DNA of 59,051 bases from an uncultured Elusimicrobia bacterium (GTDB taxonomy: Bacteria > Elusimicrobiota > Elusimicrobia > F11). The position numbers and the translations under genes were made by a program. The notes beneath the pieces are model-generated. The model did no database searches and was not told the origin of the DNA. It was given only the letters and a program-made list of their open reading frames with translations. Every line of letters begins with the position of its first letter. Within the stretch, counting starts at the first letter, position 1. This document shows, piece by piece, positions 28,155 through 51,990 of this stretch. The stretch is taken from NCBI GenBank assembly GCA_964405835.1, contig CAYOPN010000007.1, positions 1 through 59,051 of the forward strand, given 5' to 3'.

Positions 28155-30362
28155 TTAGCGCTCCAGCCGGCGGCGGATACGGCTGAGTTCCTTGTTGATC
28201 CTGTCGGCCCCTTGTTCGCCGTAGCGGCGCAGCATGTCTTTCAAGAGCTCGAGTTTCTCATGGTCCGAAATATCGCGTGCCGACACGCTCTCGTAGTAAA
28301 TCCAAGCGCGTTGCAGGTCCGCATTCGCGGGGATCCGGAACCCGCTGGCGGTTGGGGCCGATTCCACCACCGGTTTAGTAACAGGCTTGGTTTCAACAAC
28401 AGCCGGCTTGTCCGCCGGTTGGTTGGCGGGCTTCGGTGCGACGGGGGCCGGTTTCACCACTGGCTCGATCGCCGGTTTCGTGGGCTGCTTGTTGATGAGA
28501 TCAAGCAGTTCGCGGTCGATAAGCGACATGTCGATGCCACTTGCACCGTAAACCGCTTTCATCTGGTTCAATAGACCTATTAATTCATCCACCGGAGCGG
28601 CCGCCGATTTGCGCACCATGTAATAACCGAGCGCGGTGCCAAATGCGCGCAGCGTTTCATCCGATTTCTGCATCGTGGCTTGTTCGGGCGTTACAGCCGG
28701 TGTTTCCTGTTGCAGTTTCGGCGCGACCAACGTTTGCGGCGCTTCTTGTGTTTCTTCGGGAGCGCGCAACGGGTCGGTTTCGGGCTTGCTGAAGCTTTCC
28801 GATATCTTCGCGCGGCGCGCGAGCAGCGTGCGGTACGCGCGCAACACCACTTCGTCCGCGGGCATGATTTCGACGAGGCGCCGCATCGCGTCGAGGCAGA
28901 TATCAAGCTCATCACTGCGGTAAGATTTCGCGGCGATTTCGGTCAACGCGATCGCCATCAGGGAACTGACACGGTCGCTTTTCTGGACCGAGATCGGCAA
29001 CAGAGACAGGCGAACGAGCGCAGATTTTGCGTCGTTTCTCACCAGCGCTTCGATCGCTTCGATTGCGCCGGTTTTGTCCTCTTCAGGAATACCGCGCAAG
29101 AGCGCGAAACGCAACTGCGGCCACTGCAACCCATCGGTCGAATATTTCTGTAACAAGTCGCGCAGGTCGCTGCTCACGTCTTGCAAGCCCGCGTCATCGA
29201 GCGGGTATTTGCGGATCAAGAGCAGCATCAGTTGGTTTTTGTAATCGGGCGTATAGTTCCGGCCCACGCTCAACCGCGTCAAAACCATGTGCGTCGCCAG
29301 ACTGCTGTACTTAAAGGCGGCCAGCAAGTCGGCGTTCGAATAATCCTTGGTCAGTTGCAGGTTGCCGGAGCCCATCTTGAACGAGAAGCCCATGCGGTGC
29401 GAGCCGGTGGTATCGGCGAAGTTTCCGACCGGGAAGTTGAACGCGTAATCCAAACGGAAACGTGAATAGAGATAGGACAAGCCCATCGTCAGCGCTTTGT
29501 AGCCGCGCGATCCGCTCGCGTAACCGCCGCGCGCAATAAGCGCGCCCAAGGAGCCAAACGGAATGTTGCGTTCCGCACCCAACGCGAGATCGTTGTCTTT
29601 TTGACCGACCAGGCGTTCGGTCTGCCGCATTTCCGCTGTCAACGTGCCCCAACGCGGACGATAACCAAGTCCGGCCTTCATGGACATGGGCGCTTTGTCG
29701 CCGTCACCGGCGAGCGACACATCCGGTTCGTTGAGATTGATCAGCGCCAAGCCGGCCGTGTATTGATATTTCGCGCCAAACTGCACGAGTCCGCCCAAGT
29801 CAATCGCGTACGTGTCTTTGGCGTTCCCCGAATTGAACAGTTGATCGCGCTGGTTGGAGCCAACGCCCGCATCATTCAACGCGTTCTCGGTGAACCGGTC
29901 CGGCTCATATTGGCGGTGCAGTTGTTTCAAGTTCGCGCCAAAGGACGAGATTCCGCGCAGGCCGTACGGTTCGAGATCGAGGCGCTGGCCGTAGCTCAAC
30001 GTCAATGTGCGCTCGTTGAACAAATTATCGGCCTTGAAGTTGTGATAGGCGAACCCGAGGGTGCGATAACCCGGCACCAGCGGATGCGCGTAGCCGAGAT
30101 ACGTCGTACCAAGGCTCGATCCATCATCGAGCCCTTTCACCAATTGTCCGTATTGGCTCGTGATCTGGCCTTCTTGCAATTGGATCAAACCGGCCGGGTT
30201 GTACACGATCGAATCCGCGTCGTCGGCCACCGCCGTGAACGCGTCCGCCATGCCCGGAGCGCGCGCTCCGGCGTCCTGGCTTTCGAACGACGCGAACGCC
30301 ACTGGCGCCGGCAACTGCACCAGCAGCAACAGAGATAATAGGAGCGCGAGTAGCTTCTTCAT
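28155..30362 (-). CDS. Outer-membrane beta-barrel (PorV/PorP-SprF-like) fused to a helical C-terminal region
   Basis: Signal peptide, GARAPGMADAFTAVADD..IVYNPAGL, alternating beta strands ending RLDYAF..GSHRMGFSF, then ~400 aa helical/Pro-rich tail. Confidence 0.8.
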   Translation of the reverse strand: MKKLLALLLSLLLLVQLPAPVAFASFESQDAGARAPGMADAFTAVADDADSIVYNPAGLIQLQEGQITSQYGQLVKGLDDGSSLGTTYLGYAHPLVPGYRTLGFAYHNFKADNLFNERTLTLSYGQRLDLEPYGLRGISSFGANLKQLHRQYEPDRFTENALNDAGVGSNQRDQLFNSGNAKDTYAIDLGGLVQFGAKYQYTAGLALINLNEPDVSLAGDGDKAPMSMKAGLGYRPRWGTLTAEMRQTERLVGQKDNDLALGAERNIPFGSLGALIARGGYASGSRGYKALTMGLSYLYSRFRLDYAFNFPVGNFADTTGSHRMGFSFKMGSGNLQLTKDYSNADLLAAFKYSSLATHMVLTRLSVGRNYTPDYKNQLMLLLIRKYPLDDAGLQDVSSDLRDLLQKYSTDGLQWPQLRFALLRGIPEEDKTGAIEAIEALVRNDAKSALVRLSLLPISVQKSDRVSSLMAIALTEIAAKSYRSDELDICLDAMRRLVEIMPADEVVLRAYRTLLARRAKISESFSKPETDPLRAPEETQEAPQTLVAPKLQQETPAVTPEQATMQKSDETLRAFGTALGYYMVRKSAAAPVDELIGLLNQMKAVYGASGIDMSLIDRELLDLINKQPTKPAIEPVVKPAPVAPKPANQPADKPAVVETKPVTKPVVESAPTASGFRIPANADLQRAWIYYESVSARDISDHEKLELLKDMLRRYGEQGADRINKELSRIRRRLER

Positions 30363-32482
30363 CTCGCCACCCCCACGGTCCCCGTGAAGGAACGACCTTC
30401 GCCCGAAAGTTTGTAGATGTAGGCCCCGCCGGGGACCACATTCCCGCGGTCGTCTTTACCGTCCCAAATGAGTGTTGTGCCGATGCCGGCGTTTGCTTCC
30501 GGCGGTGGCAGTGTCCGGACATGGCGTCCATCGCGGTCGAAGATCTCGCCCGTGACCGCCACGTTGTTCGGGTTTTCCAGAACAAAGTACACGCGATCGT
30601 TGAGTCCATCGCCGTTCGGCGAGAAAAGCCGTGGATACACGTTGCCGGCACTGAGGCTTAATGTCGACGGATTGGCCGACGCGCGCAGTTGATAATTGCC
30701 GAGGAACGAGGAACGTGTGCGCACATTTGTTCCGACGCGGTCGAGCGTTCCGCCGATGCGGACCCAGGTGACGCCGTTAAACCAATACATGGACAGTTGG
30801 TCCGGCGTGATGTTGTTGAGCGGCGGAGCGCCGGCGATGCCAGGGGCACCGGCGAGCACCTGTCCGTTGTTCTCGTTGTATCCGATCGCCACCGTTGCCT
30901 GCGGTTTCGCGAACGCGAGATCGTTCAGTACCTCGCCGTTGTCGACGCGGACGAGTTTAAGGCGGACGTTGCGGATAATGCCACCGTCGCCGCTGTACGG
31001 TTCTTCGCTGAGCCGGATCGTGAGCGGAACGCCGTATTTGTTGTAGGCCGAACGCAACAAATCGTTGACCGTCTGCGGCATCTGCACATGCGAGACACCG
31101 TCCGTGCTCAGATAAATGACGTTGGCTTCGGGGCTCGAATCGGCGATCAGCGAATGTTCGGACTGGTTCCCGCCGGTATCGATGGCGCGGATCGTGTAGA
31201 AATAGGTGACGCCGCTGACATTGTCGGCGAACGCGGTTGTGGTCAGCGGGACCGGTGTAACGAGGACGCCCGTGCCCGTCAATGTGTCGCGACGGTAGAT
31301 GTAGTAACCGCCGAGGTCGGTGATGGTGGAACCGTCGACGTTGTAACGGACCGGTTCCCACGTGAGGGTGAACGCGTTACCGGTCGGGTCGAGGAAGCCT
31401 TTGAGGCCTGCGGGCGCCGCCGGCATTTGGACATCGCCCAGGTTTGACGTGAACGCCGTGACGGTGGAGCTTGGCGTCGTGAAGACGCCGTCGCCGTTGA
31501 TCGCGCGGACGCGGTAATAATAGGTGGTGAGTTGCGCCAGGCCCGTGTCGTTGTAAACGGTCACGGTCATGGTTGCTACCGGCACATAGACGATGCCGTT
31601 GTTCGAACGTTCGAGCCGGTATTGTGTCCCCGCCGGGTTTCCGTTGGAAGTCCACGACAGGTCGACCGTGGTCAGGCCGACATCCGTGACCGCCAGATTC
31701 GCCGGCACTTGGGCCAGTGTGTAGACGGTGACCGGCGCCGTCGGTAGCGATGTTCCGGACAGGTTCGATGCTCTTAAGCGCCGCGTGATCGCTTCGTTCG
31801 GCGTGAACACGCCATCGATAAGCGAGAAGCCGTTCGTATTGCCGACCGGTACGTCGGCAGGGAACGAGTACAGGATGTAGTTGGTGGCGCCGGCCGTGAT
31901 GTCCCACGACCATTGGATGCTGAATGTCGACAGCGCCATTCCTTGGAAGTTGGTCGGTGCTGAGCCAAGAGACGACGTAACGAATGCATGGGCTTGTTGT
32001 CCGATTGCGCTCGTGTTCGTGTCGATCGGGGAAACAAAACCCCTATCGTCTACGCTCATGATGGCGGCGTAATACGTGACGCCGCCCGGTAAACCGTTCA
32101 ACAACAGGAACTCGTTTACTCCCGGTGTTCCGGGGACCGGTTCGTTGGGAACGTCCTGCGCAGAATTCCACCACGTGGTCGTGCTTCCCACGCTGTCCGC
32201 GGAATACGTCGCAATGCGGACCACGTAAGAGGTGGCCGGGTTTTTGTCCGCGAAGAGATTGTTGTTCTCATCGGGCGCGCTCCATTCGAGGAGCATTTGG
32301 TTGGCGCCGCCGGGGATGGCCTGCAAGTTGGTAATGGCCGCCGGTGGCGTGGTATCGAGTGGACGAATAACGATCGTCAACGAATCGGAAACGGCCGCGA
32401 GGGCGTGCGGAGGCGTCGCCAGGGCAAAGAGGCTCCCGGCGATGACCAAACCTGTTTTGGCCATCTTGCGCGCGAGTTTCAT
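30359..32482 (-). CDS. Secreted FN3-repeat protein with gliding-motility/T9SS type-B-like CTD; putative fibre anchor
   Basis: Signal peptide to ALA|AVSDSLTIVIRP, about four FN3-like domains, VYPRLFSPNGDGLND...WDGKD..G..Y.Y C-terminus. Start at 32482 preferred (32464 or 32554 possible). Confidence 0.85.
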   Translation of the reverse strand: MKLARKMAKTGLVIAGSLFALATPPHALAAVSDSLTIVIRPLDTTPPAAITNLQAIPGGANQMLLEWSAPDENNNLFADKNPATSYVVRIATYSADSVGSTTTWWNSAQDVPNEPVPGTPGVNEFLLLNGLPGGVTYYAAIMSVDDRGFVSPIDTNTSAIGQQAHAFVTSSLGSAPTNFQGMALSTFSIQWSWDITAGATNYILYSFPADVPVGNTNGFSLIDGVFTPNEAITRRLRASNLSGTSLPTAPVTVYTLAQVPANLAVTDVGLTTVDLSWTSNGNPAGTQYRLERSNNGIVYVPVATMTVTVYNDTGLAQLTTYYYRVRAINGDGVFTTPSSTVTAFTSNLGDVQMPAAPAGLKGFLDPTGNAFTLTWEPVRYNVDGSTITDLGGYYIYRRDTLTGTGVLVTPVPLTTTAFADNVSGVTYFYTIRAIDTGGNQSEHSLIADSSPEANVIYLSTDGVSHVQMPQTVNDLLRSAYNKYGVPLTIRLSEEPYSGDGGIIRNVRLKLVRVDNGEVLNDLAFAKPQATVAIGYNENNGQVLAGAPGIAGAPPLNNITPDQLSMYWFNGVTWVRIGGTLDRVGTNVRTRSSFLGNYQLRASANPSTLSLSAGNVYPRLFSPNGDGLNDRVYFVLENPNNVAVTGEIFDRDGRHVRTLPPPEANAGIGTTLIWDGKDDRGNVVPGGAYIYKLSGEGRSFTGTVGVAR

Positions 32483-32603
32483 CCGGTCTGAAATCGACCG
32501 AACGAACTCAGTGATGTCCGCCACTATGTGTTTCATGTTGCAGTGACAGAGCACTCCTGTCGTTTCGACATTCGTCTCCTCTGACGCGATGCGCTACGCC
32601 CAT

Positions 32604-32628
32604 GTGTCCAGGCGCACGTCACCCCGAC
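32604..32628 (-). promoter_or_regulatory. Conserved RNA hairpin, copy A, downstream of subunit gene
   Basis: 20/25 identical to 33500-33524, with all differences compatible with the stem. Confidence 0.5.
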
Positions 32629-32717: not shown

Positions 32718-33362
32718 TTAGTTCGGCTGTACTGCCGTGAGCAGGATGTGGACGTTCTGCGCGTTGGTCGTTGTGGTCACCGACGGCAGACGGAAACGCA
32801 GCCACAGAAGCGAGGTCGCGGCCGCAGCAGGGCTTGGCGCGAGAGCGTCCATGTCTTTGAATCCGTGTTCACCGGAAGCGGCCTCGAAGTGACCGGTCAC
32901 GCCACCCTGGGTACCGACGTAGCGATTGGTTGTTGAAATGACATCGCTGTCGTTTTGTCCGGGTTGAGTGCCGCTGAAGTAACCGCCAGATTGCGCTGGG
33001 GCCGTGGTGTGCGCGATGGTGGTGAACACACCCCAGGCTTGCAGCGCGTCGCCTTCGTTCGACGATGTGTCGGCGTCAAACGTCCATGGCGTTCCGGCCG
33101 AGGAGATAAACCCCTGTAGACGGAGGTCCGTCGTCGCGTAGGTGGAGTCGATGGTGACCGTCGACGGTTGCACGGTTTGCGTGGAGGCCGCCAGATCCAC
33201 CGTTCCGAGATCCAACACGACGTTTGCTGTGTCGATGTCGACCGAATAGAACGCGTTCGGTGTGATCGTGACCGTCAATGAGTCGGTGACGGCCGCCTGT
33301 GCGACATGTGAGAGCCCGAACCCGAAGGCCAAGGCCAGTGCGACTTTTATTGCACGTTTCAT
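32718..33362 (-). CDS. Secreted 214-aa putative fibre subunit, paralog 1
   Basis: GGGGAG RBS; signal AQA|AVTDSLTVTITP; beta-rich; C-terminal LWLRFRLP..NAQN..LTAVQPN. Confidence 0.85.
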   Translation of the reverse strand: MKRAIKVALALAFGFGLSHVAQAAVTDSLTVTITPNAFYSVDIDTANVVLDLGTVDLAASTQTVQPSTVTIDSTYATTDLRLQGFISSAGTPWTFDADTSSNEGDALQAWGVFTTIAHTTAPAQSGGYFSGTQPGQNDSDVISTTNRYVGTQGGVTGHFEAASGEHGFKDMDALAPSPAAAATSLLWLRFRLPSVTTTTNAQNVHILLTAVQPN

Positions 33363-33374
33363 TTGAGTCTCCCC

Positions 33375-33616: not shown

Positions 33617-34261
33617 TTAACTCGGTGCTACCGCCGTCAGAACGATCATGATGTTCTGCGGATTTGTTGTGGTCGTGTTGCTCGGCAGACGGAAACGCAG
33701 CCAGAGAAGCGAAGTCGCGAGCGGGTCTGGGCTCGGGGCCAACGCGTCCATGTCTTTGAATCCGTGCTCACCGGAAGCCGCTTCGAACTGATTGGTCACG
33801 CCGCCTTGGGTGCCGACATAGCGGTTCGTGTTGCTGATCACGTCGCTGTTGTTGACGCCGGGTTGTGTGCCGCTGAAGTAGCCGCCGGATTGTGCCGGGG
33901 CTGTGGTGTGGGCGATGGTGGTGAACACGCCCCAGGCCTGCAGCGAGTCCAGTTCGTTCGACGTTGTGTCGGCATCAAACGTCCAGTCGGTGCCGGCGGA
34001 GTCGATGAACCCTTGCAGTTGCAGGTCTGTGGTCGCGAACGACGACAGTACGGTGACCGTCGAGGGCTGCACGGTGGCAGTTGATGCCGCGAGGTCCACC
34101 ACGCCCAAGTCGAGCGCTACGTTGGCCGTGTCAATGTCGACCGAGTAGTAGCCGTTCGGCGTGATCGTGACCGTCAATGAGTCTGTGACGGCCGCCTGTG
34201 CGACATGTGCGAGCCCGAGCGTAAACGCCAGGGCCATTGAGGCTCTGATTAACTTCTTCAT
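33617..34261 (-). CDS. Secreted 214-aa putative fibre subunit, paralog 2
   Basis: AAGGAG RBS; same length and motifs as paralog 1. Confidence 0.88.
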   Translation of the reverse strand: MKKLIRASMALAFTLGLAHVAQAAVTDSLTVTITPNGYYSVDIDTANVALDLGVVDLAASTATVQPSTVTVLSSFATTDLQLQGFIDSAGTDWTFDADTTSNELDSLQAWGVFTTIAHTTAPAQSGGYFSGTQPGVNNSDVISNTNRYVGTQGGVTNQFEAASGEHGFKDMDALAPSPDPLATSLLWLRFRLPSNTTTTNPQNIMIVLTAVAPS

Positions 34262-35579
34262 TTTGTTTCTCCTTTTTTCGTTAGTGACTCCTACTCATGA
34301 TTTCGCTGTGCTCCTTAGCTCGGTTGAACCGCCGTCAGAATGATGCTGATGTTCTGCGGGTTGGTTGTGGTCGTGTTGCTCGGCAGACGGAAACGCAGCC
34401 ACAGAAGCGAGGTCGCGGCCGCAGCGGGACTCGGCGCGAGAGCGTCCATGTCTTTGAATCCGTGCTCACCGGAAGCGGCTTCGAACTGATTGGTCACGCC
34501 GCCTTGGGTGCCGACGTAGCGATTGGTCGTGGAGATGAGATCGCTGTCGTTGACGCCGGGTTGCGTGCCGCTGAAGTAGCCGCCGGATTGTGCGGGGGCC
34601 GTGGTGTGCGCGATGGTGGTGAACACGCCCCAGGCCTGCAACGCGTCCAGTTCGTTCGACGAGGTGTCGGCGTCAAACGTCCAGTCGGTGCCCGCTGAGT
34701 CGATGGTGCCCTGCAGACGCAGGTCGGTCGTTGCGTAGGACGACAGGATGGTGACCGTCGACGGCTGCACGGTTTGCGTGGAGGCCGCGAGGTCGACCAC
34801 ACCCAAGTCGAGCGCAACGTTGGTGGTGTCGATGTCAACCGAATAGAACGCATTCGGCGTGATCGTGACCGTCAATGAGTCTGTGACGGCCGCCTGTGCG
34901 ACATGTGCGAGCCCGAGCGTAAACGCCAGGGCCATTGAGGCTCTGATTAACTTCTTCATTTTGTTTCTCCTTTTTTCGTTAGTGACTCCTACTCATGATT
35001 TCGCTGTGCTCCTTAGCTCGGTTGAACCGCCGTCAGAATGATGCTGATGTTCTGCGGGTTGGTTGTGGTCGTGTTGCTCGGCAGACGGAAACGCAGCCAC
35101 AGAAGCGAGGTCGCGGCCGCAGCGGGACTCGGCGCGAGAGCGTCCATGTCTTTGAATCCGTGCTCACCGGAAGCGGCTTCGAACTGATTGGTCACGCCGC
35201 CTTGGGTGCCGACGTAGCGATTGGTCGTGGAGATGAGATCGCTGTCGTTGACGCCGGGTTGCGTGCCGCTGAAGTAGCCGCCGGATTGTGCGGGGGCCGT
35301 GGTGTGCGCGATGGTGGTGAACACGCCCCAGGCCTGCAACGCGTCCAGTTCGTTCGACGAGGTGTCGGCGTCAAACGTCCAGTCGGTGCCCGCTGAGTCG
35401 ATGGTGCCCTGCAGACGCAGGTCGGTCGTTGCGTAGGACGACAGGATGGTGACCGTCGACGGCTGCACGGTTTGCGTGGAGGCCGCGAGGTCGACCACAC
35501 CCAAGTCGAGCGCAACGTTGGTGGTGTCGATGTCAACCGAATAGAACGCATTCGGCGTGATCGTGACCGTCAATGAGTC
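34155..35579. repeat. Tandem duplication with 698-bp period
   Basis: 34155-34881 matches 34853-35579 with no difference seen by eye; the ORF-track translations of the two copies are identical. Confidence 0.9.
34315..34959 (-). CDS. Secreted 214-aa putative fibre subunit, paralog 3 (chimera of 2 and 4)
   Basis: Signal peptide and upstream region identical to paralog 2; mature part identical to paralog 4. Confidence 0.88.
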   Translation of the reverse strand: MKKLIRASMALAFTLGLAHVAQAAVTDSLTVTITPNAFYSVDIDTTNVALDLGVVDLAASTQTVQPSTVTILSSYATTDLRLQGTIDSAGTDWTFDADTSSNELDALQAWGVFTTIAHTTAPAQSGGYFSGTQPGVNDSDLISTTNRYVGTQGGVTNQFEAASGEHGFKDMDALAPSPAAAATSLLWLRFRLPSNTTTTNPQNISIILTAVQPS

Positions 35580-35657
35580 GGTGACGGCCGCTTGTGCGAC
35601 ATGTGCGAGCCCGAGCCCGAAGGCCAAGGCCAGTGCTACTTTGAGGATGCGTTTCAT
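35013..35657 (-). CDS. Secreted 214-aa putative fibre subunit, paralog 4
   Basis: AAGGAG RBS before ATG 35657 (an upstream in-frame ATG at 35738 also has an SD). Confidence 0.88.
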   Translation of the reverse strand: MKRILKVALALAFGLGLAHVAQAAVTDSLTVTITPNAFYSVDIDTTNVALDLGVVDLAASTQTVQPSTVTILSSYATTDLRLQGTIDSAGTDWTFDADTSSNELDALQAWGVFTTIAHTTAPAQSGGYFSGTQPGVNDSDLISTTNRYVGTQGGVTNQFEAASGEHGFKDMDALAPSPAAAATSLLWLRFRLPSNTTTTNPQNISIILTAVQPS

Positions 35658-43300: not shown

Positions 43301-46300
43301 CCCAGCAAAAACCACTCTGTGGAAATCTCGGAATGGTTGACTGCTTTTACTCTGGCGTGGTACGTGGTGGCAGTGTTCAGATTTAGGAAATTGGTGGTGA
43401 CCGTCTGTGTAGTTATTTCAATATCGTCTTCTCCGTCAAAGGTCGAGGCAGTGGACATTTGGACTGTGTACCAAGTGATCGTCGGGTTTGAGTTGCTTAA
43501 CCAGGAAACCGTAATGGAAGTCAGATTAACCGCGGTCCATGTGGACGCCGCGGAAGCGGGAATGTTCGCGAGCGTGACGGTTGATGCATTGGACGACCAA
43601 GAGCTTGATACGCCATTGATGACGGATTTAACGCGCGCGAAATAGGTCGTGTTGGGGATGAGCGTCCCAAACGGGACCGCATATAAATTGACGGTATCAG
43701 AACTGGTCAACGTGCCAGTGAAATCGGAAGCGGTACTGGTTTCGAGTGTGTAGGTATCGGCGGCCGGTGAAGGCGGCGACCACGCGGCCGTGAAGGAGGA
43801 AATATTTACTACGTTGAAATCGAGACCTGTCGGCACATTTACTTCAAAGACCCAGTTCACGTTATTCCCGAGATCCACGCTTCCAGGAAGCGCGAGGATG
43901 CGGCGGCCGGCAAACGCGTGGGAATCTTTCACCTGCGCGTACACGACCGCGTGTGTGCTCGTGTTGTTGATGTGCCACGGCGTGCCGTCGACATTCGATT
44001 TCAACACGGCCGGGTAGAGCGCCGATCCGGTAATCGAGAACGAAGAAACGGTAACGGTCGAACCCGCATTGAAATACATGGTCGCCGCGGAGCCGAGGCC
44101 AACCGTGTTCACAAACAACCGCGCGGCGGAGAAACTGGAATTGAAGATGAGTCCGCCGGCGCTGGCGTTGGAGGAAGTGACATGACCGAAACCTTGGCCG
44201 GCGTGTTGGACCGACTGCGCGCTCGCGCCAGCGAAGACGACCGTGCTGTTGTTATGAACAAACGAACCGAGGTTCGTCCAATTTCCACGGACGGTCAACA
44301 CGCCTGTCGCGTTGGCCCCAACCGTGGTGACGTTGGTCCCATCTCCAATGGACAGATCACCCTCGATTGTAATCTCTCCCGCCGGGAAGTTTTGCGTGGC
44401 GGTGCCGGCTGGCATCAGGTCGAGATGTCCGTAGGTTTGCGTCGTTAGCGTGAGCGGCGTGCTGGTTTGCAAATAACGCACGCGGCTGGTCGGGCCAAAC
44501 GTGAAAGTGTCGAACGTGGTGGGGAACGTGGAGGTGCCCGACATTTCAAACGTCGCTCCGTTGGAGACCTCGAATGTCCGGCCGGCGTTGCCGACAATTC
44601 CAAATCCGCCGTTCTTGAATGTTCCTGACTGTACGCGCAGATGGCCGGTCACATTGGCCGCGGTCACCGCCGCGCCGAGCGTCGCGCCGGAAGCGGATGT
44701 GTTATTCAAATACAGATTGTGATAAGCCCCTTCCGTAAAGAAGCGAACGGTTTGAGCCGAAGTATCATCGGCATAATTGAAAATGCTGCCCGAACCACCG
44801 GCGTTTAACGTACTGGAGTTGGCTGGCAGCGTCATATTGCCTTTCATGTTTAATTGGCCCGCGCCGCCAGACATGTTGATCACTTTTGCCGGCGCGGTGG
44901 AAGACGCGAAAGTAAATCCGTTGAACGCGTTCAATTCTCCTGATGTGATGTTGATCTGGGACACCCGCGTGGTTGTGTCGTTGGTCCCGGCAAACATGAT
45001 CAACCCGCCCACCGTGGCGGTGCTGGCGTTCAAGTTCCATGCCGTGGTGCGATTATCAAGCAGGGGTTGATGCATGGTGACAGGACCGTTCACAGTTAAT
45101 GTGACCGTGCTTAACTGTGTGAGCGAGTTGTTGGCGTTTGAGGCTGCGAACACAATTCCGGCCACCGTGGCGTCTACGTTAACGATCACGCTGATGCCGG
45201 AGTTGATGGTGATGAGGTCCGTTGTCGCTGGGAACCCTCCCGGTCCCGTGCAATTCACCCATGTCCCGGCCGTGTCCCAATTTCCGGAGACCGCGGCGTT
45301 GCAGGTCGTGGGGGAAGTTGTTTTGGTGCTGCCGACCGTCAAATAGGAGGAGTTCAATTCGCCGTGGTTGACCGCTTTGATACGCGCGAAATAGGTGGAG
45401 CCGAGGAAGAGGTCCTCAAAGGTTGCGCTTAGGTTGTACGTGGAGGAGCTATAAAACTCTTCGGTTAAGAAGTCGCTGGCGGTGGCGAGGTCGACGACGT
45501 ACCGGGTGATGCCGGTTGGGTTGCCGTTCGCGAGCCAGTTGACGGTGAAGGACGTGTAATTGACGAAGGTCCATGTGGAAGCTGCGGATGCCGGAATATT
45601 TGCCAGCGTGGCGGTGGCGAGTTCCGTTGACCAAGCACTGGCGATGCCCGCATTAATCGAATTCACACGACCGTAGTAAGTGGTGTTCGCTGTCAACGGC
45701 GCGGTCGAAGTGGCGAACAAATTCAGTGTGGACGAACTGATGACGGTGCCGTTGAATAGAGAGTCGGTACTGACTTGGAACGTGTAGCTGTTTCCGGGCG
45801 GGACCGGAGCGTCCCATGCGGTCGTTAGCGTATGAGTGGAAGAAGCGGTGAACCGGAAATTGGACGGCGTGGACGGCGCTTGTGTCACGGTGCTTCCCAA
45901 CAAGAACCATGCGGTGTCGATATTCGAATGGTTAACCGCTTTAACGCGGGCGTAATAGGTTTCACCGTGACTCATGGATTGGATCGTGGCCTGCAGATTG
46001 TAGGTGGACGAACTGAAAGTTACACCCGCATTGAACGCGGACACGGTCGAGAGTTCAAGCACGTACCTTGTCTGCGGCGATGGGTTTCCGTTGCCCAGCC
46101 ACGCGACCGTTACCGATGTGAAATTCACCGCGGTCCAGGTGGAAGCGGCGGTGACCGGAGCTCTGGCGAGCGTTGCCGTTGAGAGTGTTGAAGACCAATC
46201 GCTGAGAAGGCCGGAAACAATGGAATTGATGCGCGCGTGATAGGTGGTGTTCACCAACAAGAATGACGTGGTCGCGCTCGTGAGTCCCGTCGACGTGGTG

Positions 46301-49300
46301 GACGTCGGCGCGACGAAATTCGAATTGGTGCTGAACGTCAATGTGTAACTGTCTGGCGCAGGAACGTTGGCCGACCATCCCAAACTTAGTGTATTGGTCG
46401 ATGCCGATGTGAAAACAAAATCGGATGGTGTGTCGGCGCCAAAAGCCCAGTTGGAATTGTGGTCTATGCTAACGCCGCCGGGGTAATCGAAGATGCGCAG
46501 TCCGGAATTGGCGTTGGAATCTTCCACGGACACATAACGGACGGTGTGTGTGCTGGTGTTATTGAGATGCCAATAGGTGCCGGTGTGTGTGGAACGCAGG
46601 ACCACCGGATAGGGCGCGGCGCCGGTGACAACGAAAGTGGCGACCGTGAACGTTGATCTTCCGGCGAAGTACATCGTGGCTGACGAGTTCAGATCGGACG
46701 TGTTCAGCATCATTTTGGAAGCGGAGAAACTGGACGTGAACATCACGCCGCCGGCGCTGATGTTGGAAGAAATAATTGTGGCGAAGGTTTGTCCGGCGTT
46801 GGCGATCCGTTGCGTTGTGTTGCCGGACAGCGTAATGGAACTGGTGTTTGCCGTGAACACGCCGGCGTTGGACCAGTCGCCACGCACGCGCATGTTGATG
46901 TTGCCCGCTTGGAATACGCCAAGCGGATTGATCGACATATTGCCGTTCACGTCAATCAGCCGGCCATTGGTGTTGTTGTTCAACGTGGTTGAGTTCGTAT
47001 CGGACGCGCCGCCGATAGTTAAGTCACCGTTCACGATAATCCTTCCTGTGCCAAGAGGGGACGTGGTGATGGTCCGGTTGGCCGCGGAGGAATTGCTGAA
47101 CGTTAAATTGTTGAAGGTCCAGTTGTTGGTGCCGGCAATGTGGCTGCCGAATTGTTGGTTGAGCGCGACCCGTTGCTCAAATGTGCCGCCGCTCAAATTG
47201 ATTGTCCCGTTGGTCCCATTGCCCATGACGCTGCCGTTCACGGTAACGTCCACAGCTCCGAGCAACGTGCCTGCTGTTACCGTCAACGTGGACCCTATCG
47301 ACACCGGGTCGTTCAACGTCCATTGGCCGCCCGTTCCACTAAAAGTCAACGAGTTGAAATCGGACGCTCCGAGCATATTGCCGGACAAGCCAAGGCCCGC
47401 GGTGGTGCCGTTGAAAGTGACAGTCCCGTTCCGCGAGGTGAACGCGCCGTCATTTTGATAGTTGCCGCCGATGGCCAAGGAAAGATTGGTGGCGGACACG
47501 TCCAGCGTGTTATTGGCTTCGATCGTGACCTTCGCCGTCGCGGTCGTAGCGGCAAGCAATGTTTTGGTGGGTGTTCCGCTCGGAGCGCTCAACGTAAGGT
47601 TCCCGTACACCGGTGTGCCCGAGATATTTTGGTTAATGCCGGCGTTGTAAGTCACCGTGGAGAGCGCATTAAGCGCGATGCGACTGGCGGTGTAGTTCGT
47701 GGGCCACGTGGTTGCGGTCCCCGCTGTTCCCAAAATGAAATTGGTATTGGCCGCCATTGTCAGCAGATTCGTCGCATTGCCGGCGATTTGGAATCCGCCG
47801 TCTGCCAACATTCCATTCTCAATTTTTAAATTTCCATTGATGGTGGGAGCGGCCCCGAACGTTTGTGTTTGATTGGGCGTATCGATGATCAAATGCATGA
47901 GTGTCAGCGTGCCGGAGTTGATCACGGTGCTGGCCGCGCTCGTGATGGTCAATGTGGACGTCATGGCCGAGTAGGTCCCGACGCGGGTGATCAGCGGGCC
48001 CGTCAATCCGTTGACGATGACGGAAGATCCGTTGGCATAGAAGAATCCGTTGGTGGCGACATTGAGGGTCCCGGTTTGGAAAGGCCGGTTGCTTGTGGTG
48101 GTGGTCATGCTGGAACTCGCCGTCCCGGTGCGCGTCAGCAACGTGTCGGCGTCCACGTCCAAAAGACCTCCCAGGTTTACGGTCAATACGTTATTACCGG
48201 CCGGGGTCACCGTGAAATCGTTCAAGACTGTCACCGTGCCCGCTCCGAACGTGTAAGCGCGCGCGGCATTGACCGTTGGGCTCAAGACCAGGTCGTAGAA
48301 CGACGGTGTTCCGGAATGCAGTGTCACCGATGCGTTGGGGGTCATGGTTACGATAGAGTTGCCCGATTCAAACACGCCGGCGTGGGCGAACAACGTGCCG
48401 GATGTGGCGCTAAGCGTGATGGTGGCGGATTGCGCGCGCAGCGTCGCTTGCGCTCGCAGGTCCAACCGGCCCGCGTTGAGCGAATAGTTCGAGCCGACCA
48501 CTGTATCAAGGATGGAATAGGCGTTTCCGCTTCCATCCAGAATCGCATTGTGCGTGGCCGCCACGTTGATAGCACCGCCCATGTTGACCGTCAATGTCGC
48601 CACTCCGACGGAGACTTTATCAGGATCGATGGTGAATGTACCGTTCATGGTCAGGTCGCCTGACCCCATTTCGTAAGTGCGGTTCGCGGTCAGCGTGGGC
48701 GAAATGGTCACGAAGTTAAATGTGATGGTTCCGTTCGTAAGAGTGACGTCGGCGTCAGAGGTAAACGTCACCGTGGTGCCGGCGGTGGTGAACGTGCCGG
48801 CTTGGTTCCATAACGGGCTTGTTGTTCCGTTCAAAGTGATCAGCGAAGAGCGGCCGTTTAATGTCCCACCCGTCATGAGACTAAGACGCCCGGTCGTTAT
48901 TGGGTAATTGGTCGCGGTCGTGTCCAATGTGGTCGTGGCGTTGTTCGTGCGCGTGATTGTGATTGTTTTGTCCGGCGCTACGACTATTCCGCTCGCGCCA
49001 AGGTTGACGGTCAAAGCCGCGGCACCGACCGTGGTTTTGTCCGGGTTAATGATGAAATCGCCATTAATGGTGTGCGGTCCGGCGCCGACGGTGTAGGTGC
49101 GGGCGGCCGTGATCGTTGGCAAGAAGGACAGGTTGTAAAGATTTTGCGTGCCGCTAAAAACCGTCACGGCGGCGTTCGCCGACGCGATGACAAGCGAAAA
49201 CCCTTCGTTGAATGTGCCGGTCCTCGTCATCAAGGTGCCGGCGGTTCCGTTTAGCGTGATCGTTGAATTTTGCGCATTGTAAGTACCGTTTGCGGCGATA

Positions 49301-51606
49301 TTGATTAATCCGGTGTTGAGTGGATAATCCAAACCGGCTCCGCTGTCGAGAACGGAATAACCGTTGGTAGTGCCCGAGATAGTTGTAGTGAAACCGGCTC
49401 CGACCGCGATCGATGAACTCATGTTGACAGTAAGCGTGGTGTTGCCGGCGGTTGTTTTCACCGGGTTGATGGTGAAGTTTCCGTTAAGAGTCAAACTTCC
49501 TCCTCCAATGGTGTAGGCACGGTCGGAGGTCAATGTCGGCGTAAGGGAAAACGCGTTCAAAGTGAATGTCCCAGAGAAAATTTGGACGTCGGCATCCGAG
49601 CCGATTGATAATGTGGACGTCGCTGGTGTAAAGGTCCCGTTTACAGTGAATAGCGGTCCCGTTGTTCCGTTTAGCGTTATGGCGGACGCGCCGGCGCTAA
49701 GAGTCCCGGCGGTGTCCACCAACAACCGTCCCGCCACCAACGCGAATCCACCTGTGGCCAATGACGCTGTGGCCGACCCCGAACCTGAAATGGACAAGAG
49801 ATCGTCTGTTTCCATGGCCACTCCCATGGTGACGGCCAATGCGCCGGATCCGGAGGGATTAATAATCAAATCATTGAGCACCGTGATAGATGTTGTTCCC
49901 ACGCTCCAAGCCCGCCCGGCTGATAAGTTCGGTGTTAGGGACAGATCGTAGAGAGTCATTCCGGATGCCGTCATCGTAATGGCCGCGTCGGAATTCATGA
50001 TGACTTCGGACGTTCCGGGGATAAATGTTCCACCTTCGGTCAACAGTGTGCCGCTTGTACCGTTCAGTGTGATGACGGAATCGTTGGCGTTCAATGTTGC
50101 GCCCGCCGCGACGTTGATGGCGCCGGCCGTTAACGCGTAGTTATTTCCGGTGGTGTCAAACACCGTCAATGCATTGGTGGTGCGTGTGATGGTCAGTGTT
50201 CTGGTTGAAACCACGGTCAAAGCGTCTCCCATGTTAACTGTCAATGTTTGTGCGCTTCCCGCCGTGGGGTTGATGTTCATGGCGCCCCAAACGGTAATGG
50301 CTCCGGTGCCGAACGTGTAAGCCTGCGGCGCTGTGATGGTTGGTGTCAAATTGAGATTGTTGAAGTCAACGCTGCCTTGCGTGAGTTGCACCGTGGCATT
50401 GGGAGAAAATATCACGTTGGAATATCCACGATTAAATGTACCCGCATTGGTCCACAGCGTCCCGCTCGTCCCGATCACCGTTACGGTGGAGTTGCGTGCG
50501 GTGAAAACACCATTGGCTTCCAAGTTAACGCGGCCAACCGTAGGCGCCCAATTGCTAACGGTGTCAAAAATAGAATCAGCATTCCCTGTTCCTGTGATGG
50601 TCAGGTTGGTCGCCGCCGCGCCCGTGATGGCTGCTCCCATGTTGACACTCAACGAGGCATCTCCAACGGTGGAGTTATCGGGATTAATGGTGAAGTCTCC
50701 CGTCATCGTGAGAACGCTGGTGCCGAATGTATAGGTGCGGTTTGCAGACAAAGTGGGCCTTAGTTCCAAGTGGTTTAAGGTCAATGTAGCGTTGTTGTTG
50801 ATGGTGACCGAAGCGTCGGATGTCACGGTCACCGTTGATCCTCCCTGATTAAATGTTCCGACGCGCGTGAACAGGGTTCCGGCTGCGCCTGTCAGAGTAA
50901 TTTGGGAATTGTTGGCGAGGAACGTGCTGTTGGTCGCCAAGTTTAAGAGTCCGGTTGTCAGCGCGTAGCTGTTGGTTGTCGTTGTGAACGTAGAGCGCGC
51001 ATTTGTGGTTGCTTGGACCGTGGTGGTGCCGCCAACTCGGATTGGCGCTCCCATGTTGATTTGCATGACGATCACGCCGGCACTGGCCTTGGTGGGATTA
51101 ATGTTGAAATCGCCCAAGACCGTTACCGAACTGGACCCGAACGTGTAGGTGTTGGCCAGTACCGTGGTGGTCGTAAACGACAGGTTATTGAACGTAATTG
51201 AACCGACGTTCACGTTGACGCTTGACGTAGAGACGATGAGGACAGTTGAGTTGTTGGCCAGGAAGGCTGTTGAATTGTAAACGGTGAAGGCGGTCTGGTT
51301 GGTGTGCGGATTGATTCTCAGTGTTCTGCTATTTGCATCCGCCCACAACTGGCCGCCGTCGTTGATGGTCAGTGTTCGAACGCTTGAACTCACATTTAAC
51401 GTGATGGTGTGTCCTTGAAGGATCGTCACCGTGTCGGTTGAACGGGGAACGGTATTGACGCAGCCCGTTCCGGTCCACGACGTGGGCGTGCCCCAATTCC
51501 CGCTCGTCACGTTTGATTGGCATGTCGCGGCATAAATGAACTTACTCATGCTCGCCATGGCAAGCATGAATAGCCCAAATTTACGAAGCGTGCTCAAATA
51601 CTTCAT
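37321..51606 (-). CDS. Giant 4761-aa secreted adhesin (4 beta-helix-like modules, 15 FN3-like domains, C-terminal subunit-like domain)
   Basis: Uninterrupted 14.3-kb ORF, signal peptide, T/S/N/G-rich; repeated modules counted by eye. Confidence 0.92.
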   Translation of the reverse strand: MKYLSTLRKFGLFMLAMASMSKFIYAATCQSNVTSGNWGTPTSWTGTGCVNTVPRSTDTVTILQGHTITLNVSSSVRTLTINDGGQLWADANSRTLRINPHTNQTAFTVYNSTAFLANNSTVLIVSTSSVNVNVGSITFNNLSFTTTTVLANTYTFGSSSVTVLGDFNINPTKASAGVIVMQINMGAPIRVGGTTTVQATTNARSTFTTTTNSYALTTGLLNLATNSTFLANNSQITLTGAAGTLFTRVGTFNQGGSTVTVTSDASVTINNNATLTLNHLELRPTLSANRTYTFGTSVLTMTGDFTINPDNSTVGDASLSVNMGAAITGAAATNLTITGTGNADSIFDTVSNWAPTVGRVNLEANGVFTARNSTVTVIGTSGTLWTNAGTFNRGYSNVIFSPNATVQLTQGSVDFNNLNLTPTITAPQAYTFGTGAITVWGAMNINPTAGSAQTLTVNMGDALTVVSTRTLTITRTTNALTVFDTTGNNYALTAGAINVAAGATLNANDSVITLNGTSGTLLTEGGTFIPGTSEVIMNSDAAITMTASGMTLYDLSLTPNLSAGRAWSVGTTSITVLNDLIINPSGSGALAVTMGVAMETDDLLSISGSGSATASLATGGFALVAGRLLVDTAGTLSAGASAITLNGTTGPLFTVNGTFTPATSTLSIGSDADVQIFSGTFTLNAFSLTPTLTSDRAYTIGGGSLTLNGNFTINPVKTTAGNTTLTVNMSSSIAVGAGFTTTISGTTNGYSVLDSGAGLDYPLNTGLINIAANGTYNAQNSTITLNGTAGTLMTRTGTFNEGFSLVIASANAAVTVFSGTQNLYNLSFLPTITAARTYTVGAGPHTINGDFIINPDKTTVGAAALTVNLGASGIVVAPDKTITITRTNNATTTLDTTATNYPITTGRLSLMTGGTLNGRSSLITLNGTTSPLWNQAGTFTTAGTTVTFTSDADVTLTNGTITFNFVTISPTLTANRTYEMGSGDLTMNGTFTIDPDKVSVGVATLTVNMGGAINVAATHNAILDGSGNAYSILDTVVGSNYSLNAGRLDLRAQATLRAQSATITLSATSGTLFAHAGVFESGNSIVTMTPNASVTLHSGTPSFYDLVLSPTVNAARAYTFGAGTVTVLNDFTVTPAGNNVLTVNLGGLLDVDADTLLTRTGTASSSMTTTTSNRPFQTGTLNVATNGFFYANGSSVIVNGLTGPLITRVGTYSAMTSTLTITSAASTVINSGTLTLMHLIIDTPNQTQTFGAAPTINGNLKIENGMLADGGFQIAGNATNLLTMAANTNFILGTAGTATTWPTNYTASRIALNALSTVTYNAGINQNISGTPVYGNLTLSAPSGTPTKTLLAATTATAKVTIEANNTLDVSATNLSLAIGGNYQNDGAFTSRNGTVTFNGTTAGLGLSGNMLGASDFNSLTFSGTGGQWTLNDPVSIGSTLTVTAGTLLGAVDVTVNGSVMGNGTNGTINLSGGTFEQRVALNQQFGSHIAGTNNWTFNNLTFSNSSAANRTITTSPLGTGRIIVNGDLTIGGASDTNSTTLNNNTNGRLIDVNGNMSINPLGVFQAGNINMRVRGDWSNAGVFTANTSSITLSGNTTQRIANAGQTFATIISSNISAGGVMFTSSFSASKMMLNTSDLNSSATMYFAGRSTFTVATFVVTGAAPYPVVLRSTHTGTYWHLNNTSTHTVRYVSVEDSNANSGLRIFDYPGGVSIDHNSNWAFGADTPSDFVFTSASTNTLSLGWSANVPAPDSYTLTFSTNSNFVAPTSTTSTGLTSATTSFLLVNTTYHARINSIVSGLLSDWSSTLSTATLARAPVTAASTWTAVNFTSVTVAWLGNGNPSPQTRYVLELSTVSAFNAGVTFSSSTYNLQATIQSMSHGETYYARVKAVNHSNIDTAWFLLGSTVTQAPSTPSNFRFTASSTHTLTTAWDAPVPPGNSYTFQVSTDSLFNGTVISSSTLNLFATSTAPLTANTTYYGRVNSINAGIASAWSTELATATLANIPASAASTWTFVNYTSFTVNWLANGNPTGITRYVVDLATASDFLTEEFYSSSTYNLSATFEDLFLGSTYFARIKAVNHGELNSSYLTVGSTKTTSPTTCNAAVSGNWDTAGTWVNCTGPGGFPATTDLITINSGISVIVNVDATVAGIVFAASNANNSLTQLSTVTLTVNGPVTMHQPLLDNRTTAWNLNASTATVGGLIMFAGTNDTTTRVSQINITSGELNAFNGFTFASSTAPAKVINMSGGAGQLNMKGNMTLPANSSTLNAGGSGSIFNYADDTSAQTVRFFTEGAYHNLYLNNTSASGATLGAAVTAANVTGHLRVQSGTFKNGGFGIVGNAGRTFEVSNGATFEMSGTSTFPTTFDTFTFGPTSRVRYLQTSTPLTLTTQTYGHLDLMPAGTATQNFPAGEITIEGDLSIGDGTNVTTVGANATGVLTVRGNWTNLGSFVHNNSTVVFAGASAQSVQHAGQGFGHVTSSNASAGGLIFNSSFSAARLFVNTVGLGSAATMYFNAGSTVTVSSFSITGSALYPAVLKSNVDGTPWHINNTSTHAVVYAQVKDSHAFAGRRILALPGSVDLGNNVNWVFEVNVPTGLDFNVVNISSFTAAWSPPSPAADTYTLETSTASDFTGTLTSSDTVNLYAVPFGTLIPNTTYFARVKSVINGVSSSWSSNASTVTLANIPASAASTWTAVNLTSITVSWLSNSNPTITWYTVQMSTASTFDGEDDIEITTQTVTTNFLNLNTATTYHARVKAVNHSEISTEWFLLGSTNTQTPVTCNANTVGTWSWTVGANWLNCTGPGGVPSATDIITINSGVNVIANVDATVGGIILASPGTNNSLTHLSTVTLTVNGNVTLSAATTANRTSGWNINNGTATVTGLISFPGAPVGTRISSITVTSGQLNALGGITFAANTINTNKIIVLSGSTAQLNLKGALTVPNPSATLTAGVGSIFNYNDDSAAQTISTFPAGGYNNLHVNNTSVSGATLGAAISATNVAGNLRVQSGTLKNGGLAIVGGAGDTFQVADGATFEMSGTSAFPTTFGTFTFGPTSRTRYLQSSAALNITVQSYGHLDLMPSATATRTFLAGANTIQGDLTIGDGTNATTVTANTNNTVLTVSSAVTINPNATFTAHASNPLVVRGDWRNNGVFTHNNSTISFQGISAQYVNNYGKPFANVLSSNTSAGGLVFSSSFSAARLLVNTNGLSPAATVYFAAGSTFTVSTFTITGTSGAPVVLRSIVTGNAWFLNNTTSYNVSYADVRDSNASGGRRIVNYPGGVDSGNNVNWVFGSNPPPTLQAINVALDSIGYSWSAATPLPDTYTLFVSTNSGFSAPLTSALNALTSDTTAGLKINTTYYARVIATIEGLDSAPTTVSTATLAEIPLSAASTWTAVNTTSITVTWLGNNNPFPATWFRVQLSTVPDFLSGTTLSSTTNNLNSTFSSLIPDSIYFGRVAAVNHSGVPTAFVNLGSTATLPVNAPTGLFISSAATNRLTGGWTASAPTGDSYTFQVSTASNFSGTITSSNTTLLIATTSASLSVNTTYYGRVNAIINGSSSPWSASVTTATLANQPASAASTWTAVNITSLTVNWLGNGNPAAVTQYAVQLTTVSDFLSGTLLNAETNSLDNIFDQLESGTVYYARVRAINHSGIPSDWQTLGSTHTIVSAIPKNLAFSSAATTALSATWQASAPPGDTYTLRVSTDSDFGGTIVSSTTGNLFATTMVPLIPNTTYYGQVSATVGGIPYPYSAYVTTPTLANIPLTAASTWTAVNVTSLTVNWLSNSNPSSTLYTVQLSTVSNFLSGTVHSSDTTDTAVLFESLLPFRAYFARVRAISHSNIPTSWLTNGSTTTLAPNMPNNFFFTSAATNTLSASWSQPVPAGTSYTMQVSTASDFSGSLVSSITANLFATLPATLSVNTTYYGRANAIVGIATSAWTTGIATATLANRPVTVASTWTAVNLTSFTVNWAQNGNPASVTRYMLQISTSTGFDGFDDIFISTFGLNAVVESLETATVYYGQVKAINHSDIDSAWFLLGSTNTRTPTTCNATTTGNWSNASIWTNCTGLGGFPSATDIITINSTITVTVNVDATVGGIIFAAPGAISSALTHSSTNVLIVNGNVVFNQPTTPSRNNSWNIGDASATVNGLINFAGASATTSRVSRIVIDNGTLNAYGGMTFAASANDTKIINMSGGAGRINLKGALSISNARLLTGTAGSVFNYADSSSGQTVQFFPAGSYENLHISNISGSGATLSAAITGTNVTGNVVVASGTFKNGGFAIAGNAGKSFHVMDDATFEMSGTSAFPTVFGTFTFDPLSRVRYLQTNTQNIAGQTFGHLDLVPAASATHNLPAATFNVLGDLTIGANATLNASSNQLISVGGNWSNSGLFNANSGTVTFNGAETQTLAGSTTFYALRAITSNTTIYFTPGTTQHVTHAVEFRDNTLRSISDDDPWHFRYAGSSQTLINVSVRDSNASAGALMQTQPLSVDLGNNTRWDFGSPSAVNNFSAFRSTFGAAIDLTWTSPGEDGSFGTLINSTFTIQYTTDTIFAEGNSWSPTAAQPAHVYRLNIATTNITAGSGQGRTITGLISGGTYYFRLWTTDINNNTSSISNGATTYAQPTNLSITLSTNTLSLPTPINLNTTLVISTGITVTNNGNVPATFEFAATTATPGSPWQIAATTATDRFVLWSIINATEPNATDFGVEDKLSDAFTRCTSTVISNSGSNCVDLPVGATRTIWFKLGMPGLTTTGNAQEIRITGKATVPD

Positions 51607-51636
51607 CGGATGTTTTCCGATGGCCCGGTTTTTTTC

Positions 51637-51990
51637 TCAGCGCCCTCTGGACAATTCCGCCAGCGTGAAACTGCACAGCGCCATGTTCACGCGTTTCTCC
51701 AACTGGATCCCAATGTCCGGATTGCTGGCGGTCGGGTCGACATCGATGGTGAGCGCTTCCATGACTTCCAGTGCCGTGATATTGGAGAGCGGTTTGGCGA
51801 GCCGGTAACCGACTCCTTTCAGCGCGATCACCAACCCCGCGTGGGCCAATGACTGCAGGACTTTTTGGGCATAGGCCGGTGGGATGTTTTGTTTCTTGGC
51901 GATCTGCTCTGCGTCTTGAAACTCAACGGGCGTTTTCGATAACTCGAACAAACACGCGACGCCGTACTTCACTTTTTGATTGATGCGCAT
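51637..51990 (-). CDS. Rrf2 family transcriptional regulator
   Basis: KYGVACLFEL, IAKKQNIPPAYAQKVLQSLAHAGLV..KG.GYRLAKP..ITALEVMEA; GGGAGG RBS. Confidence 0.9.
   Translation of the reverse strand: MRINQKVKYGVACLFELSKTPVEFQDAEQIAKKQNIPPAYAQKVLQSLAHAGLVIALKGVGYRLAKPLSNITALEVMEALTIDVDPTASNPDIGIQLEKRVNMALCSFTLAELSRGR

Follow-up and report, generated by a model that had tools for sequence, protein, structure and literature searches.

Contig C7 (GenBank CAYOPN010000007.1) of an uncultured Elusimicrobia bacterium, 59,051 nucleotides long and analysed here in full (the window), belongs to a genome of 2.35 Mb in 85 contigs that is 87% complete. It carries an operon of ten genes that probably builds a surface fibre through donor-strand exchange helped by a chaperone, in a diderm cell, with no usher; the chaperone role and the anchoring role, each taken alone, are less sure than the strand-exchange fibre itself. 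The genes span positions 28155–51990, separated by short gaps or overlapping, and all ten lie on the minus strand, as laid out in an earlier annotation of the letters and their open reading frames (the sequence-only reading). Sec signal peptides are predicted on all components. Named relatives of the window's proteins come exclusively from metagenome-assembled genomes of Elusimicrobiota.

The subunit family and its N-terminal strand

Five of the genes encode paralogous secreted subunits of ~190 aa each. The minor subunit (213 aa, 36680–37321) is 59% identical to the major subunit, which is present in four copies of 214 aa: paralogue 1 (32718–33362), paralogue 2 (33617–34261), paralogue 3 (34315–34959) and paralogue 4 (35013–35657). 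The mature sequences of paralogues 3 and 4 are identical, and their signal peptides differ. Together with the uniform length of the four major genes (645 nt), this identity across 34315–35657 suggests that the genes were recently duplicated in tandem or underwent gene conversion.

All five subunits had been noted to share an N-terminal strand with a sixth protein of the operon, which combines FN3 domains with a C-terminal domain (CTD) and is referred to here as the FN3/CTD protein. A search of six-frame open reading frames (ORFs) across the genome (2.9 million residues) bore this out. The pattern DSLT[VI].I.P occurs exactly six times, in the five subunits and the FN3/CTD protein, and each match begins 3–5 residues past the predicted signal-peptide cleavage site. 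The strand reads DSLTISILP in the minor subunit (37223–37249), DSLTVTITP in major paralogue 4 (35553–35579) and DSLTIVIRP in the FN3/CTD protein (32360–32386); in paralogues 3, 2 and 1 it is encoded at 34855–34881, 34157–34183 and 33258–33284, respectively. Hydrophobic and polar residues alternate along it, making it amphipathic, and strand residues D4, L6, T9, I10 and P12 are invariant or almost so in the subunit family. A C-terminal motif had also been assigned to the subunits and to the large adhesin of the operon. It is present in both, although its spacing had been given slightly off and a relaxed form, W[LF].[FL].[LM]P..T.{3,6}Q.I.I.{2,5}A..P, is needed to recover it. This form is matched by the adhesin and by all subunits but one, which has Q.V.I where the motif has Q.I.I. 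In every case the motif ends one residue short of the C-terminus.

The subunits matched no Pfam or NCBIfam family. Among 74 members of the subunit family, no WxL, TasA (Peptidase_M73) or fimbrial match was found at E ≤ 1, and a subunit profile compared with PDB sequences returned noise only. The family is small: of 1.84 billion cluster representatives, 239 belong to it at E ≤ 1e-3.

Structural comparison was more informative. The AlphaFold2 (AF2) monomer of major paralogue 3 was predicted with a pLDDT of 92.0 and a pTM of 0.86 and has nine strands. According to its secondary-structure assignment, as distinct from an inspection of coordinates, residues 1–17, which hold the conserved strand, form no strand. 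Insertion of this peptide into its own subunit, which the sequence-only reading had named as the outcome that would speak against donation, is thus not seen in the modelled monomer. In a Foldseek search of the PDB, the top matches were TLP-1a (9ikj, E 6.9e-4) and the TasA fibre (8aur, E 7.7e-4, TM-score 0.41), both with a Foldseek probability of 1.0. Further fold matches were the Sulfolobus 0406 filament, CfaB, FimG/FimF, the Csu pilus, Pyrobaculum bundling pili, cannulae and the Natrinema pilus. The best matches are almost all strand-donation fibres, among them the CfaB, Csu and TasA fibres with which comparison had been proposed, though at low TM-scores. No WxL chain was present among the 50 best matches.

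Candidate chaperone, tip and anchor proteins

Between the minor and major subunit genes lies a gene for a two-domain protein of 306 aa (35743–36663), which we consider a periplasmic chaperone candidate on the basis of its AF2 model and Foldseek matches. The model (pLDDT 91.9) consists of two PapD-like/ASH beta-sandwich domains with a conserved helix between them. The protein has a signal peptide and neither a C-terminal transmembrane helix nor another membrane anchor. Foldseek matched it to the pilus chaperones FimC, SfaE, CupB2, Caf1M, DraB and SafB (E ~1e-8, probability 1.0) and also to WxLIP of Enterococcus (9i25 and 9i1y, E 4e-8). By sequence, it belongs to no Pfam or NCBIfam family, its profile gave noise only against PDB sequences, and no PapD_N/PapD_C, DUF916 or DUF3324 match was found at E ≤ 1 among 73 family members. 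Genes for proteins of this type occur in 101 of 401 Elusimicrobiota genomes and are spread over 64 of the 123 genera; many genomes have two or three full-length copies. Thirteen other loci were found through the two-domain protein and 18 were sampled across the phylum, giving 31 that were inspected. In several distant loci, half-size, single-domain relatives (145–230 aa) are encoded near the full-length gene (L033:2860–3387, L036:15607–16287, L038:11594–12028, L043:7548–8057 and L044:12125–12688).

The largest gene of the operon (37321–51606) shares one base between its stop codon and the start of the minor subunit gene. Its 4761-aa product, a candidate for a giant tip adhesin, comprises a signal peptide, beta-helix-like repeats, many FN3 domains (Pfam fn3, E 9e-52) and a subunit-like C-terminal domain (~residues 4606–4761, 37324–37791). 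When the subunit profile was compared with an alignment of adhesin C-termini by hhalign, the local probability was 94.7% (E 5.6e-8). The last ~156 residues of the adhesin align to subunit residues 14–191, which is the subunit body without the donor strand, in agreement with the earlier observation that the adhesin has the C-terminal motif only. Such a domain can only accept a strand, and we infer that the adhesin is positioned at the fibre tip. Its orthologues upstream of the subunit genes in other loci range from 750 to 2500 aa and end in the same C-terminal motif. This holds also for the 18 further loci, which come from other families and classes: the large proteins encoded upstream there end in the motif of the local subunits.

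The FN3/CTD protein (707 aa, 30359–32482) has the reverse composition: it shares only the strand with the subunits and has no subunit body. A signal peptide is followed by the donor-strand-only N-terminus, an FN3 stalk (Pfam fn3, E 1e-14) and a C-terminal CHU_C/FlgD_ig domain (about 30362–30634), for which CHU_C scores 30.7 bits (cut-off 27) and FlgD_ig 27.6 bits, also passing the Pfam cut-off. We regard the protein as a candidate terminator and anchor. In all 12 FN3/CTD orthologues of the first locus set, the strand comes right after the signal peptide. In diverged loci it is altered in the same way as the strand of the local subunits. The subunit/anchor pair is DSLTVTITP/DSLTIVIRP in the window, DTFQITFTP/DSFSITFTP in L035, DSIQLTVVV/DTIKMTCRP in L033 and DTVVLTVTP/DSLVFTVSI in L045; in L044 the pair is VDGTITVTP/VDASLSVRP, with both members one residue shorter between D and P. 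Own-locus pairing scored better than shuffled pairing (p ~1e-4 for 17 loci; 3 of 720 permutations for 6 lineages). This shows a shared constraint on the subunit and anchor peptides, for which a common groove is the best explanation.

The same peptides could be read as sorting or export tags on monomeric beta-sandwich surface proteins that form no polymer, with the two-domain protein as a partner. We consider this improbable. The adhesin needs export too, yet has no tag and carries a strand-less subunit body, which is the division that donor/acceptor logic predicts. The best subunit fold matches are, as noted, strand-donation fibres almost without exception, and a mere tag would here have the hydrophobic alternation of a beta-strand and a D-to-P length that shifts jointly in subunit and anchor. 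What speaks for tags is that the motif follows the signal peptide immediately, at the place of sorting tags; a shared receptor would also explain the co-variation of subunit and anchor, polymerisation is predicted only, and ASH/PapD-like domains are generic.

The last core gene (28155–30362), which overlaps the FN3/CTD gene by 4 nt, encodes an outer-membrane barrel protein of 735 aa. Its PorV/PorQ-like part (aa 30–329, 29376–30275) matches NCBIfam PorV_fam over the full model length of 326 positions (E 1.8e-12) and is followed by a helical, Pro-rich tail of roughly 400 aa. There was no PorP_SprF match at E ≤ 0.1 and no match to a PDB sequence. The barrel gene adjoins the FN3/CTD gene wherever the contig extends past the latter in the 13 loci, and in 16 of the 18 further loci. 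The sequence-only reading had proposed a CTD/barrel pair resembling those of the type IX secretion system (T9SS), with a PorP/SprF barrel as partner. The CTD passes the CHU_C cut-off and the barrel of the FadL/PorV superfamily is indeed encoded next to it; however, the link to T9SS rests on weak scores, and the barrel is PorV/PorQ-like rather than PorP/SprF.

The genome contains 21 PorV-family matches in its 2.35 Mb, and at least six other genes ending in a CHU_C/FlgD_ig-type domain adjoin a PorV-family barrel. Given this recurrence, the tail/barrel pair looks like a general surface-display module of the organism, borrowed by the fibre operon. The additional pairs are located at C3:12994–15643, C4:15523–22417, C5:1535–3978, C50:5320–7748, C27:5692–7623 and C27:2621–5791. 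Among them are ORFs of 1992 aa; a CTD-bearing multihaem cytochrome of 1057 aa is encoded nearby (C27:2621–5791). A CTD-type end is also found on ORFs of 9124 aa (C6:2651–30022) and ~14800 aa (C1, near 60324).

The sharing of the strand by the FN3/CTD protein also bears on whether the operon could specify a TasA-like matrix fibre that self-assembles outside the cell, with the two-domain protein as a TapA-like nucleator or accessory and the FN3/CTD protein as an unrelated neighbour. The two best fold matches of the subunit, TasA and TLP-1a (8aur and 9ikj, E ~7e-4, probability 1.0), are what such a fibre would lead one to expect. The FN3/CTD protein, however, not only carries the strand but co-varies in it, and its gene is syntenic with that of the barrel in nearly all loci, which speaks for a tethered fibre; the 74 subunit-family members include no Peptidase_M73/TasA sequence match. 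We judge a TasA-like fibre very unlikely.

In the donor-strand exchange fibre that we favour, the soluble two-domain PapD-like protein would cap the groove of each subunit in the periplasm, probably by a long terminal beta-hairpin, and would thereby keep it able to polymerise. The strand-less adhesin would sit at the tip, and the minor subunit would act as an adaptor, plugging its own strand into the adhesin. The four major subunits would form the shaft, each lending its DSLTVTITP strand to the preceding subunit. With a strand but no subunit body, the FN3/CTD protein can end growth, and its FN3 stalk and CHU_C/FlgD_ig domain would tie the base of the fibre to the co-encoded PorV/PorQ-like barrel. 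Since the barrel topology is even-stranded, the barrel tail is expected in the periplasm, where this helical, Pro-rich region may brace the anchor.

Conservation across the phylum and passage of the outer membrane

Each of the 31 other loci inspected, drawn from many families of the phylum, has this gene set. Joint conservation, the lack of which would have told against the sequence-only reading, is thus observed. In the 13 loci found through the two-domain protein, the adhesin gene comes first, followed by subunit(s), the two-domain protein, again subunit(s), the FN3/CTD protein and the barrel. In the phylum-wide sample, the two-domain protein is present in every locus and is adjacent to the FN3/CTD and barrel genes in 16 of 18.

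The operon had been described as lacking an usher-sized barrel, a sortase motif, a prepilin site and an assembly ATPase, and our scans agree: the operon proteins carry neither an LPXTG nor a prepilin or lipobox motif, and their comparison with Pfam and NCBIfam returned no Usher, sortase or ATPase family. A cognate usher encoded elsewhere, which would have told against an usher-less system, was not found either. Usher PF00577 gave no match in this genome (87% complete), while the Escherichia coli control was positive. Across the 401 Elusimicrobiota genomes it gave two matches, both weak, against 101 genomes with the chaperone-like gene.

A candidate for a larger translocation protein is encoded at C2:3548–9319 (locus L031), where an ORF of 1924 aa shows three co-linear weak SprA matches (51, 38 and 33 bits; cut-off 200). 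It lies close to genes for a TraF_2/PorV-like barrel and a TPR protein and has no PDB sequence match. Homologues are found in 356 of 401 Elusimicrobiota genomes, including genomes without the pilus genes. Because the protein is near-universal, its co-occurrence with the pilus genes says nothing specific; it is a core outer-membrane protein of the phylum and may be a general translocon. Searches for SprA_N and GldM gave no match, but no control genome was positive either, so absence is not shown. The PorU model was matched only via its CTD-like C-terminal end, not the catalytic region.

These proteins raise the question of a chaperone-usher system with an unrecognisable usher, in which the 735-aa barrel or the ~1900-aa SprA-like protein would be platform and pore. 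The barrel is the last core gene and is kept wherever a contig reaches it, and its ~400-aa tail could dock chaperone–subunit complexes; the three co-linear SprA matches of the 1924-aa protein, weak as they are, supply a second candidate. We nevertheless think a hidden usher unlikely. The end-to-end alignment with the 326-position PorV_fam model identifies the barrel as a small FadL/PorV-type protein. The SprA-like gene occurs too widely (356 of 401 genomes) to be specific to the system, its product matches no PDB sequence, and GldM was not found, though that search had no positive control.

Several points weigh against an usher-less donor-strand fibre. Strand exchange itself is deduced from fold, motif and profile data, and no operon component matches a pilus family by sequence. 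The TM-scores of the subunit are low (0.35–0.45) and only two of its matches have E < 1e-3, so that its resemblance to donor-strand fibres is at the level of fold class and is not proof of homology. A mean-field direct-coupling analysis of 220 subunit sequences yielded mainly local and gap artefacts, with no signal between N-strand and groove that could be used. The best fold matches of the 306-aa protein are eukaryotic ciliary ASH proteins and CEP192, not pilus chaperones, in line with the generic nature of PapD-like/ASH domains, and one common receptor or sorting machine would, like a groove, give strand co-variation. With regard to the anchor, TIGR04131, the NCBIfam model of type-B sorting domains, scores 24.5 bits on the FN3/CTD protein, under its curated cut-off of 35, and PorV_fam scores 47.5 bits on the barrel, under its curated cut-off of 90. 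Several distant loci also, or instead, encode the CTD-like domain as a small secreted protein of its own (120–160 aa, with a signal peptide), beside the barrel gene or between the FN3 gene and the barrel. This is a poor fit with a plain sorting-signal role and suggests that the CHU_C/FlgD_ig-like domain partners the barrel independently. Finally, a PorV-like barrel, with its roughly 14 strands, does not have the width to pass folded subunits, the adhesin and subunits are without a CTD, and no route over the outer membrane was identified.

The separate CTD-like proteins are encoded at L014:12851–13216, L015:13561–13962, L016:8182–8547, L023:12991–13386, L036:1085–1558, L041:2365–2778, L042:1724–2122 and L048:6740–7174.

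That the donor-strand fibre crosses, or is mounted on, the outer membrane by a route known for no other pilus is a tentative and rather doubtful proposal, for which two versions can be envisaged. In the first, the chaperone would join the fibre in the periplasm and the fibre would exit base first via a type IX-like translocon; the terminator, as the sole component bearing a sorting domain, would pull the non-covalent shaft and the 0.5-MDa adhesin and dock on its own PorV-like barrel. In the second, the barrel with its periplasmic tail would be a new assembly platform that replaces the usher.

The first gene of the block (51637–51990) encodes a 117-aa transcriptional regulator of the Rrf2 family (Pfam Rrf2, E 3.3e-19). 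A promoter and terminator scan of the operon showed no enrichment relative to shuffles. Directly 3′ of the barrel gene, at 27012–28082 on the minus strand, lies a possible accessory gene. Its 356-aa product has a cytoplasmic N-terminal part, one transmembrane helix and then a beta-rich domain, and matches no Pfam family. The gene is kept downstream of the barrel only in the three closest loci (L011–L013), and the protein has one distant paralogue within the genome, on contig C3; whether it is part of the fibre system is uncertain. The flanking genes are of the housekeeping type (GltX, Fic, squalene synthase, HAD and GGDEF). The Fic/DOC-family protein, with a C-terminal helix-turn-helix, is encoded on the plus strand (26017–27015) between the operon and the GltX gene.

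Relation to known fibres and significance

Established pilus classes were rejected on sequence grounds. For a type IV pilus, a prepilin leader (G then F/M-T-L-I-E) and an ATPase are missing from the operon; for a type V pilus (FimA/Mfa), there is no lipobox in any operon protein and no Pfam match; and for a sortase pilus, there is no LPXTG. Sequence comparison of the 74 subunit and 73 chaperone-like members at E ≤ 1 likewise led us to reject the WxL, TasA and chaperone-usher families.

The closest parallel is the Elr/WxL pilus of Enterococcus faecalis (ElrA–E), for which usher-less, chaperone-guided donor-strand exchange was established by cryo-electron microscopy and biochemistry (Sleutel et al., bioRxiv 10.64898/2026.10.17.759780, Oct 2026). 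There, ElrE is a membrane-anchored two-domain chaperone, ElrD forms the shaft, ElrA is predicted to be a tip adhesin ending in a WxL-fold domain that lacks a donor strand, and ElrB is a predicted donor-strand-only terminator with LPxTG; the system is reported to be confined to Bacillota (bioRxiv 10.64898/2026.10.17.759780). The Elusimicrobia operon likewise has no usher, a two-domain PapD-like protein, a terminator with a donor strand only plus an anchoring device, and a chaperone–pilin core that is conserved while adhesin size varies. It also shares the large modular tip adhesin ending in a strand-less pilin fold, seen here by profile alignment. In contrast, there is no detectable sequence relation, with no WxL, DUF916 or DUF3324 match in any family member. 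The chaperone-like protein is soluble where ElrE is membrane-anchored, the host has two membranes, and in place of LPxTG and sortase, an FN3 stalk, a CHU_C/FlgD_ig domain and an outer-membrane barrel would serve as the anchor.

With chaperone-usher pili (type 1/P, CFA/I and archaic Csu) the operon shares a diderm host, a putatively periplasmic two-domain protein with a PapD-like predicted fold, and a subunit that resembles CfaB, FimG and CsuA/B at fold level. The order of tip adhesin with pilin domain, adaptor, shaft and terminator is also similar (compare FimH/PapG and PapH), and the subunits end right after the last strand, as if the chaperone held the C-terminal carboxylate. Unlike in these pili, no usher is found in the operon or genome and almost none in the phylum, no component has a PapD_N/PapD_C or fimbrial Pfam match, and the terminator has FN3 domains, a secretion-type C-terminal domain and a small barrel.

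Type-B CTD proteins of the T9SS pair with PorP/SprF-like barrels, as in SprB–SprF of Flavobacterium. The operon resembles these in that a gene for a large surface protein with a CHU_C-type end is followed by a FadL/PorV-superfamily barrel gene, a pairing seen at least six more times in this genome. It differs in that the phylum lies outside Bacteroidota, the barrel is PorV/PorQ-like (below cut-off) and not PorP/SprF, the SprA match is weak and remote, and the CTD-like domain is a separate small protein in some loci; neither GldM, in a search without a positive control, nor a PorU catalytic region was found.

TasA, TLP-1 and the archaeal bundling pili are the best fold matches and, like the subunit described here, have an N-terminal donor strand that is unpaired in the AF2 monomer; for TLP-1, an unassigned pond fibril, AF2 leaves the N-terminal strand of TLP-1a disordered in the monomer (PMC11494351). 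They differ in giving no sequence match, and these fibres are not known to have a PapD-like chaperone, an acceptor-only tip adhesin or a donor-only anchor. The Pam pili of bacteria of the candidate phyla radiation (CPR) are described as using usher-less donor-strand exchange with putative chaperones structurally similar to chaperone-usher parts, and Pam pilins are reported there to be exclusive to CPR (Troman et al., bioRxiv 10.64898/2026.03.03.709456). Their hosts have a single membrane, and the likeness to the present system is drawn from the published description.

No description of this system came up in full-text literature searches on donor strands in Elusimicrobia, or on donor strands together with type IX secretion and pili. 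The sequence-only reading had presented it as an undescribed hybrid fibre. This holds for the combination, which appears in no paper we found, but not for the general principle: a chaperone, a donor strand, no usher, an acceptor-only tip and a donor-only terminator were published in 2026 for the Gram-positive Elr/WxL pilus, and so are not new here.

To our knowledge, chaperone-assisted donor-strand pili were tied until 2026 to the usher pore of Proteobacteria-type cells. Two preprints of that year, on the Elr/WxL and the Pam pili, took the principle to bacteria with one membrane, in which a pore is not required. If our reading is true, the operon would encode the first usher-less chaperone-assisted donor-strand pilus in a two-membrane cell, raising the question of how a fibre with a 4761-aa tip crosses or mounts on the outer membrane. 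Three orphan protein families, which occur in 64 of 123 sampled genera of this little-known phylum, would also gain a function, and the anchoring of a fibre would be linked to a type IX-like tail/barrel module that the genome uses also for other giant surface proteins and a multihaem cytochrome.

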